A stretch of DNA of 64,000 nucleotides from positions 18,860 through 82,859 of the forward strand of contig NZ_JAHENT010000161.1 in assembly GCF_018609725.1 (NCBI RefSeq), given 5' to 3'. The notes under the pieces are model-generated. The model made no database searches. It worked only from the letters and a program-made list of their open reading frames with translations, and was not told where the DNA came from. This DNA comes from Methanohalobium sp. GTDB lineage: Archaea; Halobacteriota; Methanosarcinia; Methanosarcinales; Methanosarcinaceae. This document shows positions 54,742 to 59,732 of this stretch, one piece after another. The position numbers and the translations under genes are program-made. Position 1 is the stretch's first letter, and every line of letters begins with the position of its first letter.

Positions 54742-56429
54742 CAGACTGTCCGACAATTCTGGACTACTGTCAATCTATTTTTATCTATAAGGCAAATAAA
54801 TATAAATGATAGATTAATTAATTTATTAACATGGCTTTCATCCAATCATCTAAAGACCAGACATGGCTGCTGCCACCTGATATAAGAGACATGATAAGTT
54901 CAGACCATATCTGTTACCTAGTAGATTCCTTCGTAGAAGAACTCGACTTCAGCGAGTTTGAAGATAGATATGCAGGTGCAGGACACCCTGCATATCATCC
55001 AAGGATACTCTGCAAAGTGCTGATACAGGCAATGATCGATGGTATCAGATCATCACGTACCATCGCAAGATGTGTACGTGAGAATGTAGTATACATGTAC
55101 CTCGCTGAGAAACTGACTCCGGATTTCAGAACTATAAGTGATTTCAGGAAGGATAATGGTGATTTGATCAGAGAAATCTTCAAAAACACCGTTAATGCTG
55201 CCAGGGAAGTCGGGTCTGTGGGGATGGAACAGATGAGTATCGATGGGTCTGTAGTTAAAGCGTCTGCATCCAATAACAGTACTGTTACAAGAAATGAACT
55301 GGATGTTATAGAGGATTACATCGACAAGATGCTGAAAGAAAGCATTGTAACTGATGAACTCGAAGATGAACAATTACAAGACTGCAGGGGCTACGATCAG
55401 CTTGATGAAAACGGCAAAAACCGAGTTAAGTCTGTCTGTAAGAAGTATGCTGATAAGCTTAATAATACAAATCAGGATAAAAACTCGAGATATCTAAACA
55501 ATGTAAAGGTGGCTAAACAAGAATCCGATAAGGATACCACCAAAGGATTTAGTTTAACTGATCCTGAATCAAGGTTTATCAAGAACAAGAAGGGTAGAAT
55601 CGAACTGGGATACAACACTCAAATCACTGTTGACCATAAGGAAGGAATCATAATCGCAAACGATGTTTGTCAGGATAGAAACGATGCTCATCAGCTTAAA
55701 CCACAACTTGAACTTGTTGAAAAGTACTGTGGGAGATTAGGTAAAAATACGAAAATATGTGCTGACAGTGGTTACATTCATGAAAAGAATATACAATTCT
55801 TGAAACAGAAAGAACTGGATCCCTATATACCGGAACAAATCGATAATAGTTATAAGAAAAATCCTAAACCTGAAAATAATGCTGAACATCCTTACCATGT
55901 TTCAAGATTTATTTATGATGAACAAAGGGATGTGTATATTTGCCCTGAAAACGGGATTTTGACATTTTCATATGAATCATATGATGGAGACAGACCAGAA
56001 AAACGTCGAGTTTACAGAGGTATACATTGCAGAGATTGTAAATCCAAATATCAATGTACCAACAGAAAGGATGGGATACGTCAGTTAAAAATCACTTATG
56101 TATCAGAAGATAGGAAACATCTGAGAGATAAGATGAAAACTGAACAAGCAAAGAGAATATTTGAACAAAGGAAACATACTGTTGAACCTGCTATCGGAAA
56201 TTACAAGCAGAATTTGAGATTCACAGAATTTATTACAAGAGGGTTAAATTCTGTAAAAACTGAATTTAATCTGGTTTGTGCTGCTGTTAATCTAAAGAAA
56301 ATATGGATGAATTCTGGATAATACAAATAATTGATTGAAAATCAATTATTTGTATTGTAGAATAACAAAAAATTCTGCAAAATAATATGGTACGTATTAT
56401 TGTTTAACTAATTATTGTCAGACAGCCTG
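54742..56429 (+). mobile_element. IS1182-family insertion sequence
   Basis: 16-bp IRs CAGACTGTCCGACAAT / CAGGCTGTCTGACAAT; 4-bp TGAA direct repeats at 54738-54741 and 56430-56433. Confidence 0.92.
54831..56321 (+). CDS. IS1182-family DDE transposase
   Basis: LLP....I..DH, G.PAYHP..L.K, PDFRTI.DFR, IDGS...A.A, GYN.Q, ADSGY, R...VEP..G..K. Confidence 0.92.
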   Translation: MAFIQSSKDQTWLLPPDIRDMISSDHICYLVDSFVEELDFSEFEDRYAGAGHPAYHPRILCKVLIQAMIDGIRSSRTIARCVRENVVYMYLAEKLTPDFRTISDFRKDNGDLIREIFKNTVNAAREVGSVGMEQMSIDGSVVKASASNNSTVTRNELDVIEDYIDKMLKESIVTDELEDEQLQDCRGYDQLDENGKNRVKSVCKKYADKLNNTNQDKNSRYLNNVKVAKQESDKDTTKGFSLTDPESRFIKNKKGRIELGYNTQITVDHKEGIIIANDVCQDRNDAHQLKPQLELVEKYCGRLGKNTKICADSGYIHEKNIQFLKQKELDPYIPEQIDNSYKKNPKPENNAEHPYHVSRFIYDEQRDVYICPENGILTFSYESYDGDRPEKRRVYRGIHCRDCKSKYQCTNRKDGIRQLKITYVSEDRKHLRDKMKTEQAKRIFEQRKHTVEPAIGNYKQNLRFTEFITRGLNSVKTEFNLVCAAVNLKKIWMNSG

Positions 56430-56463: not shown

Positions 56464-56826
56464 TCAACCTTTAACGAGGTTGAGCATTTGCTGATTCATG
56501 GACGGTACTTGAGAGCTGGTTCTATGACCAGTCGTAGAGGTCCCCTCTCCACAGCCGTTGATTCCCGCGAGCCCCCCAGTATGCTTTTTTGAGTTATAAT
56601 ATGATGATTTTTTCAATATGTTTATCGCAGCATTAAGATCTCTGCCAATTCCTAATCCATAATTACTGCAGTAGAATGTTCTCTCTTCCAATTTCAGTTT
56701 TTCTTCTCTATTAGTTCTACAACGAGAACAGATTTGAGAGGTGTTGTTGGGATTGACTTTGTCTACGATTTTACCTCTCTTGGCTGCTTTATAGGTCACA
56801 TGCTGAACCAGTTTATTCCAGCCCAC
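56464..56826 (-). pseudogene. tnpB: tnpB C-terminal fragment
   Basis: W..L.....YKA..GK, TSQICSRC, RTFYC, RDLNAAINI. Confidence 0.85.
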
Positions 56827-57016: not shown

Positions 57017-57673
57017 TCAAATATGAATGCTAACTCCTGACCCAATTTCCATAAATGAGTCTGGATACAACTTTGCTATTTTATTTTTATTAGATGTACA
57101 GTGACCTGCAGCAATTAATTTTAAATTTTTGAGTAAATTATATTCCTCGCTTCCGTGAAGCCCACCTATAATTCCTGCTATATCACCATAAACAGATGCA
57201 TTTTCTATTATATTTGTTAATCCGGGATGTGCACAACCTGTTATCACATACACTCCAGCGCTTGTTTCCAATAAAAGGGATTGTTCCTTGATTTTTTTAC
57301 CGAGTTTACCGGTCGTATATATAGATGGATGTATCTCGGTGGGCTGTGATATTTCTATTAATTTGGCTCGCGAAGATATTTCGTCTTTAAGATATTTGGA
57401 AAATGATGCAGGAACATAGACCTCAAGGTCTGTATTGGCATTAAGGATGGATGTAAGCCCACCCATATGATCCCAGTGGTGATGAGACAGCACAACTTTT
57501 CCAATTTCTAATGGTGATACACCCAACATCTTTAAATTGTGGAGGAGCACGTAGCCATCCCAACCCGTATCAAATAGAATTTTGGATTGACCTGTATCTA
57601 TCAGGCAGGAAAAACCCCACCCACTAAGGAATCCATTAATTGCATTATTATCATATACTACTGTTAATTTCAT
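57017..57673 (-). CDS. MBL-fold metallo-hydrolase
   Basis: LFDTG, LSHHHWDHMGG, ITGCAHPG, GGLH, GHCT; real start likely MKLTVVYDN at 57673. Confidence 0.88.
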   Translation of the reverse strand: MKLTVVYDNNAINGFLSGWGFSCLIDTGQSKILFDTGWDGYVLLHNLKMLGVSPLEIGKVVLSHHHWDHMGGLTSILNANTDLEVYVPASFSKYLKDEISSRAKLIEISQPTEIHPSIYTTGKLGKKIKEQSLLLETSAGVYVITGCAHPGLTNIIENASVYGDIAGIIGGLHGSEEYNLLKNLKLIAAGHCTSNKNKIAKLYPDSFMEIGSGVSIHI

Positions 57674-57680
57674 CCAATTG

Positions 57681-57722
57681 GTCGCAGGAGACTCCCTGCG
57701 TAAGCTGGGAGTCTCCTGCGAC
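57681..57722. repeat. Perfect 16-bp inverted repeat, 3' end hairpin of an older iscB element
   Basis: GTCGCAGGAGACTCCC-N10-GGGAGTCTCCTGCGAC; same GTCGCA..TGCGAC boundaries as the hairpin at 57998-58041. Confidence 0.8.
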
Positions 57723-57729
57723 CTATCTT

Positions 57730-57990
57730 TTAAATCTGTACCATCTGAGTTAGAGTTGTGCATCTTGCTGATATCCTCCTGCAGTTTTTCTTAACGTTAG
57801 GGTTTTTCTTGAATGTATTTCCGAATATATCCATGATGCTGAAATTTCCTGATGTTCTCTTACCTTTAACGAAACCTGAGCTGACTGGTGTTTTGATGAA
57901 ATCGAATTTTCTCAATCCGTGGAGTTTTCCTGTTGGTATATTCTTCTCGGATCTTACACCTTTAGTTTGTTAATAATCTCCACTGCTCAC
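57730..57990 (-). pseudogene. iscB: C-terminal remnant of an older iscB of a different subfamily
   Basis: VSSGDY*QTKGVRSEKNIPTGKLHGLRKFDFIKTPVSSGFVKGKRTSGNF..NVKKNCRRISARCTTL; premature TAA; frame continues at 59597-59635 as LSDVVYYKKH. Confidence 0.7.
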
Positions 57991-58018
57991 AAAAAATGTC
58001 GCAAGGAAGCCCACTGCT

Positions 58019-59335
58019 TCAGCAGAGGGAGGAATTGCGACCATCGGTTTTTATATCCGGATTTAAGTTAAGTCTGTCTAGTTGATAGGTATATCCATCG
58101 AATCTCTGTACTAGTTCGAGATATTTATGGTTTATACCCTGTGCAATCCTTTTAGCACCGTTTTTGATGTCGAAACTACCGCTACTCCTGCATGCGACTG
58201 CACCTTTCCAGATACCTTTGTATTTTCCTTTTGGAACGACTGCTTTTATGATGTCTCCTGATTGGAAACTGAATATGTATTTGATTCTTGGTGCAGGTTT
58301 CCTCGGGAAACCATATTTATCCAGCTTACATCTTTTATAACTGCCTCTTCCTTTAGCATGGATATGTAGGACACTATTAGTTTTAAACTTCAGTTCATCC
58401 AGTGTGGATTTGCCTACACAGCACGCATCGAAGTGATGGTCTTTCGGCAAGTTTAATTTTATCCTGTTCATCTTGGTTAGTGCACCTGTACCGCATTCTA
58501 CAGGTAGTTTTGTATCTTTCAGCACTTCAAAGACCCTCCACCTTGTAGAGTTAACTATCGTTGTATCTTTCAGAGGTTTCTTGGCTTTTTCATGCACTCG
58601 AGGGTAACCGTATTCATCAGCTGTCATGTTACCTTTGTTCTGGTTGCAATCATGACAGGCTATGGTCAGATTGCTGACTCTGTTAGAACCACCTCTGCTT
58701 CTCGGTACGATGTGTTCCACCTCTAACTGAACATCCTGTCTGCCGCAATATACACAGGTTCTCTGGAATTTCTCAAGCAGATACTCTCTTACTTCGTAAC
58801 CCTGCAGAGTTCCCTGCTGGTACTCGACACCTTCAATTTCAGGGGTTTCCATCAGCTGTGTGTCGAATTTGATATTTTCGTAAGTTATTGAGCTTATAGG
58901 AATCAATTTCATCAATTTTCTAATCCATGATTGTATGTTGTCCACTCTGCTCTGCAGAGATGGGGGCAGCCATCCTTTCGTTTTTTTTCTGTTATCGAAT
59001 CTGGGTTTTCTGTATCTCAGGTTCTGTGATCTTCTCCTGCGTCTGAAATTCCTTCTATCATCCAGTTTCTTTTTAATATCAGCTCTGTGGTTAATCTGGG
59101 CTAACCAGACTACATCTCTGTTGTTCTTCAATATAGTTAATCCAGTGTATCTTGAACCGTAGTCGATTTTGGGTGTGAAATCATATTTTACGTCGTCTGA
59201 TTTCAGTTCTTTGAGCCTGATTGTAAATGGATATTTCTTATGTATAGTAGCCTTTCCGGCTTTCAGCAGTATTCTTGCTTTAGCCGGATGACACGGTGTT
59301 AAAGGTTTCTTGTTCCTGTTGAGTACGAATACCAT
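58019..59335 (-). CDS. iscB: RNA-guided endonuclease IscB
   Basis: PLMP-like PLTPCHPAKAR, RuvC-I IDYGS, Arg-rich bridge helix RRNFRRRRR, RuvC-II ENIKFD, HNH CVYC..EHIVPRSRGGSN..C..CN, RuvC-III HHFDA. Confidence 0.95.
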   Translation of the reverse strand: MVFVLNRNKKPLTPCHPAKARILLKAGKATIHKKYPFTIRLKELKSDDVKYDFTPKIDYGSRYTGLTILKNNRDVVWLAQINHRADIKKKLDDRRNFRRRRRSQNLRYRKPRFDNRKKTKGWLPPSLQSRVDNIQSWIRKLMKLIPISSITYENIKFDTQLMETPEIEGVEYQQGTLQGYEVREYLLEKFQRTCVYCGRQDVQLEVEHIVPRSRGGSNRVSNLTIACHDCNQNKGNMTADEYGYPRVHEKAKKPLKDTTIVNSTRWRVFEVLKDTKLPVECGTGALTKMNRIKLNLPKDHHFDACCVGKSTLDELKFKTNSVLHIHAKGRGSYKRCKLDKYGFPRKPAPRIKYIFSFQSGDIIKAVVPKGKYKGIWKGAVACRSSGSFDIKNGAKRIAQGINHKYLELVQRFDGYTYQLDRLNLNPDIKTDGRNSSLC

Positions 59336-59596
59336 GGATATTACTCCTTTCTCTGCTTGATGCAGGTTACGCGGCTTATCAGCCGTCTCCCTTCGACAAA
59401 GTTATCCCAGTTTGTCATGCACGCACACTGTCCCTACCTCTCAGGACTGTTTAATGCAGTACGATAGAGCAGCGGACTAGGGAAGCATCCGAGGGTATCA
59501 TGGCCGGGATAACGTAGTTCCTTTAAGGAACTGAGTCTGGTCAATCAGGGCTTTCCGCAGGGACAAGCCCACCTCCTTTAGAGGTGGGTTATTGAC
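59336..59596 (-). ncRNA. omegaRNA (HEARO-type) scaffold; guide is the flank from 59597 upward
   Basis: GTCAATAACCCACCTCTAAAGGAGGTGGGCTTG..GATTGACCAGACTCAG..CTACGTT..GGATGCTTCCCTAGTCC..TTGTCGAAGGGA; GTCAA/TTGAC pairing. Confidence 0.88.
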
Positions 59597-59732
59597 ATGT
59601 TTTTTGTAGTACACTACGTCTGATAACTGTAATGTTGTCAGCAATGTTTGTGCAATCTTTACCCTGAGTACATTGCTTATCTATACATAAAGCACACCAC
59701 ATATTAACTGTTCCTCTATTTTCAAATTGTTT

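Follow-up and report, generated by a model that had tools for sequence, protein, structure and literature searches.

A complete IscB element in the 64,000-nt stretch of Methanohalobium sp. DNA that we analysed (the window) lies inside the remnant of an IscB element of another family, and we conclude that the arrangement very probably arose by ordinary nesting of IS200/IS605-family IscB elements. We refer to the inserted element as type A and to the interrupted one as type B. The analysis gave the anatomy and boundaries of the elements, both TAMs, an empty orthologous site, multiple unrelated insertion sites for type A, and an absence of other matching targets for its guide. The inserted element and its immediate surroundings are made up as follows.

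59597..59616, minus strand: natural guide source, 20 nt, TAGTGTACTACAAAAAACAT, directly 5′ of HEARO model position 1
57991..59596, minus strand: type-A IscB element, 1606 nt, non-autonomous, of the IS200/IS605 'ISC2' type (omegaRNA, iscB and end hairpin)
59382..59596, minus strand: omegaRNA scaffold (HEARO), Rfam RF02033, 144.7 bits against a gathering score of 83, E=3.4e-31, full model (1-211/211)
58019..59335, minus strand: intact type-A iscB ORF, 438 aa, open frame; Pfam RRXRR 1.5e-68, HNH_5 2.6e-14, HNH 3e-13
57998..58041, minus strand: type-A subterminal imperfect hairpin, 7-bp stem, 5x5 internal loop and upper stem; ssDNA fold -13.3 kcal/mol, z=-3.6
57987..57990, minus strand: GTGA target site / TAM of type A, adjoining its 3′ end

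The boundaries of type A were set from six aligned 5′ ends and eight aligned 3′ ends in this genome, together with three copies in two related genomes, G001 and G002. Within this genome, five of the six 5′ ends start with GTCAAT, the divergent one being C24b, and the eight 3′ ends share the sequence ...GCGACNYTTYTY. The omegaRNA starts at 59596, which is also the element boundary, and lies directly upstream of the iscB ORF. The encoded protein matches the solved IscB structures (TbaIscB, 3.2e-47; HfmIscB, 5.2e-30; OgeuIscB, 7.4e-29), and in the alignment with TbaIscB the RuvC Asp motif, the HNH motif and the H..D motif all line up; the Pfam and structure matches together give a split RuvC domain (RRXRR, arginine-rich helix) with an inserted HNH domain. 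The hairpin is kept in all type-A 3′ ends and is followed by a 7-nt tail (57991-57997). Beyond the 3′ end, GTGA is found in all eight copies in this genome and in both copies in G001, and GTGG is found in G002 (10/11 with GTGA over the three genomes). Type A has no terminal inverted repeats and inserts sequence-specifically without target-site duplication; both the corA flanks and the type-B flanks join seamlessly around it. Judged by sequence, type A is an IscB / ISC2 element of the IS200/IS605 superfamily, and its IscB would be expected to act as an RNA-guided, TAM-dependent nuclease that cleaves double-stranded DNA.

The sequence on either side of type A comprises the following features.

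59628..59702, minus strand: first 25 codons of a DUF1847 gene, the rest deleted; G001 and G002 have the full 188-aa gene (PF08901, 1.1e-51)
59597..59632, minus strand: upstream piece of the type-B iscB remnant, type-B codons ~310-321, LQLSDVVYYKKH; homology to the C61 copy starts at joined position 101, i.e. 59632
57674..57990, minus strand: downstream piece of the type-B remnant, with iscB codons 322-407, end hairpin and tail AATTGG; 83-86% DNA identity to the C61, C143 and G001 copies
57680..57723, minus strand: type-B end hairpin, 17-bp stem, -24.5 kcal/mol, z=-10.7
57669..57673, minus strand: ATGAA target/TAM of type B; ATGAA follows 9/10 type-B ends

With type A removed, the flanks read ...TCA GAC GTA GTG TAC TAC AAA AAA CAT | GTG AGC AGT GGA GAT TAT TAA CAA ACT AAA GGT, where the upstream flank ends at 59597 and type A begins at 59596. 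The joined flanks align without gaps across the junction to two other loci in the same genome, C61 (83% of 346 nt, E=1e-99) and C143 (83% of 325 nt, E=3e-95). C61 encodes a full-length 407-aa type-B IscB (RRXRR 2.1e-63, plus HNH) that is 34% identical in protein sequence to the inserted type-A IscB, and the joined remnant is identical to the C-terminus of the C61 protein at 84 of 98 aa. The original prediction, made from the window sequence, was that one iscB is nested in another; this holds, since type A sits at a GTGA within a type-B remnant whose flanks align gaplessly to type-B copies, and the predicted joined sequence is also correct, with slightly refined coordinates. The second end hairpin that it described is real (57723..57680). 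The prediction that the flanks continue into an iscB-type C-terminus was borne out by the C61 alignment, but the old copy is a 3′ remnant (36 nt upstream and 317 nt downstream of the insertion) rather than a whole iscB. An HMM alignment of the joined flanks to IscB had been proposed as a check. The Pfam search matched no family in the type-B C-terminal fragment, because Pfam has no model for the IscB C-terminus, and the family of the remnant was therefore assigned through the C61 paralogue. Given that homology to C61, the end hairpin and the TAM are all present, we class the joined flanks as an IscB pseudogene remnant. The C61 element also carries a HEARO-like RNA of its own, which we class as a divergent omegaRNA because its match to RF02033 is weak (73.5 bits, below the gathering score). 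The type-B ATGAA doubles as the start codon (ATG AAA) of a gene for a metallo-beta-lactamase-fold (MBL) protein (57017-57673; Pfam MBL match), and the sister genome, G001, has an identical ATGAAATTAAC without the type-B element.

The orthologous locus in G001 and G002 is empty of the insertion and retains an intact DUF1847 gene; its flanks are 96-97% (G001) and 79% (G002) identical to those in the window. Type A is thus present at multiple loci, while a related genome lacks it at the orthologous position, as expected for a mobile element. Recent mobility of the window copy is not supported, since the closest other type-A copies are just 85-94% identical to it. On the upstream side, homology to the DUF1847 locus of the sister genome extends as far as 59628, and TTACA at 59628-59632 is a microhomology common to DUF1847 and type B at the joint of a deletion. 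We considered whether positions 59633-59732 might be further decayed type-B sequence, and ruled this out, as they are 96-97% identical to the start of the sister genome's DUF1847 gene. The downstream type-B piece contains an in-frame TAA (57970-57972). We conclude that the decay of the old type-B copy is explained by the type-A insertion, the in-frame TAA and the ~2-kb microhomology deletion; nuclease attack is not needed.

Type A occupies about 9-10 loci in this genome at different GTGA sites, including corA, a histidine-kinase gene, tnpB, a P-type-ATPase fragment and, at two positions (after aa 321 and after aa 241), type-B iscB. At the corA site, joining the two contig halves restores a single unbroken CorA (2.9e-75). 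The genome is a 161-contig draft, and several type-A copies break contigs. The 5′ half of a type-A copy in tnpB (C148) and a 3′ half in tnpB (C63) do not make one simple insertion, as 44 nt separate their flanks when placed on homologous tnpB copies; for the type-A copy in C77, no contig matches as the 5′ half, the overlaps with C148 and C105 being just 87-89% identical. This C77 copy is the second one nested in type B, and the intact type-B copy in C61 retains GTGAG at the corresponding position, which would be a genuine self-target if the C77 guide matched it. While type A is expanded here, type B is represented by one full copy plus fragments; in G001 there are 5-6 apparently full type-B elements and two copies of type A. 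In 5/6 truncated type-B copies the 5′ end falls within type-B positions 1560-1725, and type-B fragments are also bounded by TnpB-type elements and deletions. A TnpB element is itself nested in type B at C132. The genome has one full and three partial Y1_Tnp genes, one of which adjoins a type-B derivative, and a Y1 TnpA supplied in trans may mobilise type A.

By position, the guide source of the window copy consists of type-B iscB codons, roughly codons 315-321, and aligns to the type-B iscB in C61, C77 and the G001 copies; the prediction that the natural guide is iscB coding DNA next to the TAM was therefore right. Because type A occupies numerous unrelated GTGA sites, the guide is whatever DNA adjoined the landing site, and it is type-B coding sequence by position, not by design. 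A guide made of rival DNA is likewise a generic by-product of nesting, as the TnpB element within a type-B copy illustrates. It had further been predicted that any uninterrupted old copy would be cut, and here the data point the other way. Among eight uninterrupted type-B sites (three in this genome and five in G001), none combines a matching protospacer with the TAM: each differs from the guide at 2-4 of the 16 TAM-proximal nt, and GTGA is absent from seven through synonymous variation in a Val codon (GTA/GTC). The sole uninterrupted site with GTGA, L006, has 4/16 mismatches, position 1 among them. Since the mismatch counts equal the 14-23% background divergence between type-B copies, there is no sign of escape selection. 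The suggested search for guide targets, run as a scan of the genome_contigs and metagenome_contigs collections with the degenerate pattern GTRTAYTAYAARAARCAYGTGA for an uninterrupted target, gave nine chance matches in unrelated bacterial genes, 0/9 in iscB, with records of or near this genome possibly left out of those collections. A literature search for nested IscB elements or guide competition between elements found nothing specific.

We favour a nested insertion, for which we propose the following sequence of events. A type-B IscB element with TAM ATGAA would first have inserted at precisely the MBL-fold gene's start codon, with the DUF1847 gene upstream. A type-A element with TAM GTGA, moved in trans by a Y1 TnpA, would then have landed seamlessly 5′ of a chance GTGA in the Val322-Ser323 codons of the type-B iscB, splitting the gene. 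Either before or after this, a ~2-kb deletion between the TTACA microhomologies would have taken the type-B omegaRNA, about 310 iscB codons and all but 25 of the DUF1847 codons. The type-A guide may be transcribed by read-through from the upstream operon of Fe-S ATPase and DUF1847 genes. After excision by TnpA, the type-A IscB would recognise the vacated donor joint, which has both the guide match and GTGA, and cutting of this joint followed by recombination with a sister copy would restore type A. Nesting of one insertion sequence in another is to be expected in a genome with 61 TnpB matches in 2.09 Mb, which also has >15 IscB-related loci. Set against purely chance landing, type-B DNA contains 0.2% of the GTGA sites in the genome but two of about nine type-A insertions; the probability of this is about 1e-4 if all GTGA sites are equally tolerated, and about 0.01-0.05 if 5-10% are. 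Type A may therefore have some preference for type B.

Such a preference could be unrelated to the guide. If type-B DNA were a preferred landing pad for type A or other IS200/IS605 elements, for example because a common TnpA is bound at type-B hairpins or because the 3′ part of type B is often single-stranded, nesting would be non-random. We regard this as unlikely, although several observations fit it. The type-A and type-B hairpins share GTCGCA...TGCGAC, the 7-bp stem, the 5x5 internal loop, the upper stem and the 7-nt tail; the count of type-A sites in type B and the clustered 5′ ends of truncated type-B copies are both in line with it; and the TnpB element and other IS ends are likewise found next to type-B 3′ fragments. 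However, the numbers are small, neither type-A copy in G001 lies in type B, insertions persist where they are harmless, e.g. in dead transposons (survivorship bias), and the fragments were found with a 3′-end query (detection bias). An assembly artefact, in which a chimeric contig joins repeats from different loci or strains in a metagenome bin, would be consistent with the fragmented draft and with contigs broken at several type-A copies, but is barely credible here: the edges of the insertion match the canonical type-A termini exactly, GTGA TAM included, the two flanks continue one and the same type-B sequence in register, type A is interior to a 101-kb contig, and the outer flanks show synteny with G001 and G002.

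The original prediction had favoured an active role for the guide, with the type-B-derived RNA directing cleavage of any uninterrupted type-B copy, whether resident in the genome or carried on incoming DNA, leading to competition or homing between OMEGA elements and to decay of the old copy. That the guide is type-B coding DNA adjoining a valid TAM, that type A is expanded and type B reduced here with the reverse in G001, and that type A is found twice in type B all speak for this account, but we consider it very improbable. In this genome and G001, no uninterrupted type-B site has GTGA and fewer than four mismatches in 16 nt, the mismatches are those of background divergence, and the public scans gave no iscB target. 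Type A was not found at the same position in several type-B copies, as homing would leave it, and the two insertions in type B lie at different positions, so that neither was copied from the other by homing; its other sites are unrelated. Moreover, type-B fragments are also bounded by TnpB-type elements and deletions, and the window type B was destroyed by insertion and deletion rather than by cutting, its site persisting on both sides of type A. A combined version, with type-B iscB as a preferred and partly guide-assisted landing pad in an RNA-guided contest between two OMEGA families, strikes us as similarly far-fetched. Here, a first TnpA-mediated insertion into type B would provide a guide that cuts similar alleles in the cell or on incoming DNA, after which repair from the occupied copy would spread type A, or end-joining would delete type B. 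If true, such a contest would account for the expansion of type A and the decay of type B seen here but not in the sister genome.

If the competition model were true, OMEGA nucleases would act against other mobile elements, a plausible step from selfish homing to defence-like targeting. The evidence favours the default, i.e. that in a transposon-crowded genome elements land in one another and automatically gain guides of each other's DNA. The locus gives a clean natural case of nesting, reconstructed in full, with the empty orthologous site, both TAMs and the deletion joint; it offers an archaeal IscB that appears intact and has a short GTGA TAM, and a ready test case for the mismatch tolerance of a natural IscB guide.

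Archaeal ISC2 elements of the GT|GA target type have been described, as have N|ATGA sites (Kapitonov, Makarova & Koonin 2016, PMC4810608), and ISC insertions into other transposons have been reported and used to define element termini (PMC4810608). Type A resembles the ISC2 elements with GT|GA sites, such as ISC2-1_ML and ISC2-2_ML of Methanosarcina lacustris (PMC4810608), in being ~1.6 kb and non-autonomous, in encoding only an HNH-containing IscB, in its subterminal hairpin and GTGA without target duplication, and in its multiple copies in a Methanosarcinales-type archaeon; this likeness is by description, not sequence, and type A differs in sitting in the coding region of another IscB family. 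IscB and TnpB are known to cut donor joints, with a TAM shared with TnpA (bioRxiv 10.1101/2023.03.14.532601). Type A shares with these systems a flank-derived guide, a TAM that is the TnpA target site and its own vacated site as expected target, but that vacated site is another transposon's nuclease gene, and for type A the arrangement is read from sequence. The type-A RNA is a full-length match to HEARO RF02033 / OgeuIscB-type omegaRNA (144.7 bits) immediately 5′ of the iscB ORF, whereas the type-B RNA differs, at 73.5 bits. Type B itself resembles the ISC2 / IS605B elements with N|ATGA sites (PMC4810608) in inserting directly 5′ of ATGA(A); those elements are reported in Proteobacteria and Cyanobacteria, whereas type B is in an archaeon, where its site is repeatedly the start codon of a host gene (ATGAAA).

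The compact IscB element of the window (type A) sits in the iscB gene of a second family (type B), after the codon for amino acid 321 of 407, since its joined flanks match type B across the junction. Read on the minus strand, these flanks run ...GTAGTGTACTACAAAAAACAT up to the junction and GTGAGCAGTGGAGATTATTAACAAACTAAAGG beyond it. In a BLAST search of the window's own genome, the joined sequence matched contigs C61 (83% of 346 nt, E=1e-99) and C143 (83% of 325 nt, E=3e-95), gapless across the junction, and shorter fragments in C132, C64 and C46. C61 carries a full-length type-B element encoding a 407-aa protein with RRXRR and HNH domains, only 34% identical to the type-A protein; the element also has a weak HEARO-like RNA of its own (73.5 bits). 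The joined remnant in the window, which contains an in-frame TAA, is identical to the C terminus of the C61 protein at 84 of 98 aa. The original prediction of one iscB nested in another therefore holds. The second end hairpin that it proposed is real, and the natural guide is, as claimed, iscB coding DNA: type-B codons make up the 20 nt on the 5' side of the omegaRNA.

Features of the locus and its surroundings (window coordinates):
59702..59628: DUF1847 remnant, first 25 codons only, fused to type-B codon ~310
59632..59628: TTACA microhomology at the deletion joint, common to DUF1847 and type-B iscB
57991-59596, minus strand: compact type-A IscB element
59596..59382, minus strand: full-length HEARO/omegaRNA (Infernal RF02033, 144.7 bits against a gathering score of 83, E=3.4e-31)
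59335..58019, minus strand: type-A iscB, open frame of 438 aa, 3' of the omegaRNA
58041..57998, minus strand: imperfect type-A end hairpin (7-bp stem, 5x5 internal loop, upper stem), then a 7-nt tail
57723..57680: type-B end hairpin
56464-56826: TnpB C-terminal fragment, Cas12f1-like TNB (7.8e-21), just downstream of the IscB locus
54831-56321: IS1182/IS5-type DDE transposase gene, just downstream of the IscB locus

The type-A protein has Pfam RRXRR (1.5e-68) and HNH domains and matches the solved structures of TbaIscB (3.2e-47), HfmIscB (5.2e-30) and OgeuIscB (7.4e-29); its RuvC and HNH motifs align in the TbaIscB alignment. We infer that the element has IscB activity and some cognate TnpA, and its guide is probably transcribed by read-through from the co-oriented operon upstream.

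In the window's genome, type-A 5' ends start with GTCAAT in 5/6 copies, the C24b copy being divergent, and GTGA directly follows the 3' end in 8/8. Both type-A copies of a sister genome (G001) follow this pattern, and one copy in a further related genome (G002) has GTGG. ATGAA lies immediately 3' of type-B ends in 9/10 copies. Host start codons repeatedly form this type-B site, as in the ATGAAA of the MBL-fold gene (window 57669-57679) and that of a NADPH-dependent reductase-like gene (C61:17883-17895), and the native upstream region of the host gene is replaced by the type-B end (...CAATTGG). The type-B 3' stubs that remain, 190-350 nt long, may have been kept because host genes now take their expression signals from them. 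In all other type-B copies (e.g. C61:17896-17937) the end hairpin is formed by GTCGCATTCCTCTCCC...GGGAGTCTCCTGCGAC and contains a 5x5 internal loop (-13.2 kcal/mol); in the window (57680-57723) GGAGA stands in place of TTCCT and is exactly complementary to the other arm, so that the stem extends to 17 bp (-24.5 kcal/mol). Such a "perfected" hairpin suggests quasipalindrome (template-switch) correction, and TnpA would probably no longer recognise it.

The flanks of the window locus are 96-97% identical in G001 and 79% in G002. Both genomes have an intact 188-aa DUF1847 gene (PF08901, 1.1e-51) between Fe-S P-loop ATPase and MBL-fold genes, and neither IscB element is present at the orthologous locus of either. 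In the window, type B ends ...GCGACCAATTGG, directly before the MBL start codon. Judged from these sequences, the simplest history would comprise three events: type B would have inserted at ATGAA; type A would have inserted at a GTGA within type-B iscB; and, before or after the latter, a ~2-kb deletion would have taken the type-B omegaRNA and the greater part of both the type-B gene and DUF1847.

Elsewhere in the genome type A occupies unrelated loci; its guide is thus simply the DNA next to which it landed. One copy interrupts corA, whose halves (C105:16714 and C108:13704) join seamlessly into one uninterrupted CorA (2.9e-75); another, internally deleted, lies seamlessly in the HATPase domain of a histidine-kinase gene (C24:29759-30710). 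Both host genes are apparently functional. Further copies lie in tnpB (C148 and C63), in a P-type-ATPase fragment (C149) and in a second type-B copy (C77), there after amino acid 241, unlike the window position. In a published model, TnpA and IscB share a TAM, the motif adjoining the target, and IscB cuts the excision donor joint, whereupon recombination restores the element (10.1101/2023.03.14.532601). On this model, the expected target of the type-A guide would be the element's own vacated site.

The original prediction held instead that the guide would cut uninterrupted copies of the rival iscB. For each uninterrupted type-B copy that we found (three in the window's genome, five in G001), we compared the protospacer with the guide. 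There are 2-4 mismatches in the 16 TAM-proximal nt, and 7/8 sites lack the TAM because GTA or GTC replaces GTG at a synonymous Val codon; GTGAG is kept only at one G001 locus (L006), with 4/16 mismatches including the TAM-adjacent base. The mismatch counts are in line with the 14-23% divergence among type-B copies, and so give no sign of escape selection in these eight protospacers. When one genome per species and 241 million metagenome records were scanned for a degenerate form of the target (GTRTAYTAYAARAARCAYGTGA), nine sites matched, all in unrelated bacterial genes without IscB similarity. Guide-driven competition between the families, though conceivable, has no positive support; we conclude that the observation of nesting is confirmed, and its interpretation partly supported. 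It is possible that type A has a mild preference for type B independent of the guide, e.g. via a shared TnpA. Consistent with this, the end hairpins of the two families have a common architecture and stem, and two of about nine type-A sites fall in type B, which holds 0.2% of GTGA sites (P about 1e-4 without survivorship correction, or 0.01-0.05 if only 5-10% of sites tolerate insertion).

The window's genome (2.09 Mb) has 61 TnpB matches (TNB domain), eight HEARO-type RNAs and Y1 TnpA genes; given this load, and type-B fragments bounded by other elements, nesting is the norm there. In C132:1000-1487, a multi-copy TnpB element directly abuts type-B codons with its right end (...GGTAGTTCAC; ...GCCAAGTGGTAGTTCAC), so that this TnpB guide is type-B coding DNA too. 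The TnpB element lies after TTCAT, which is the ATGAA target of type B itself on the opposite strand. One Y1 TnpA gene (C46:1-576, C terminus only) adjoins an internally deleted type-B derivative, whose omegaRNA runs directly into type-B position ~1605. This joint lies ~8 nt downstream of the type-A site in the window, and the proximity may be coincidence or mark a fragile spot. The window itself has an accumulation zone of mobile elements at 54.7-59.6 kb. The balance of the families is reversed between the sister genomes: type A has ~9-10 loci here and two in G001, whereas type B has one full copy and fragments here and 5-6 full copies in G001.

The two kinds of target site, GT|GA and N|ATGA, are known for ISC elements, GT|GA in archaeal ISC2 families (Kapitonov et al. 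2016, PMC4810608). Type A resembles the elements of that study in its two-base ambiguity, GT standing both at the element start and in GTGA. There, ISC insertions into other transposons served to define termini; the locus described here adds a new and well-resolved case to a kind of event already known.
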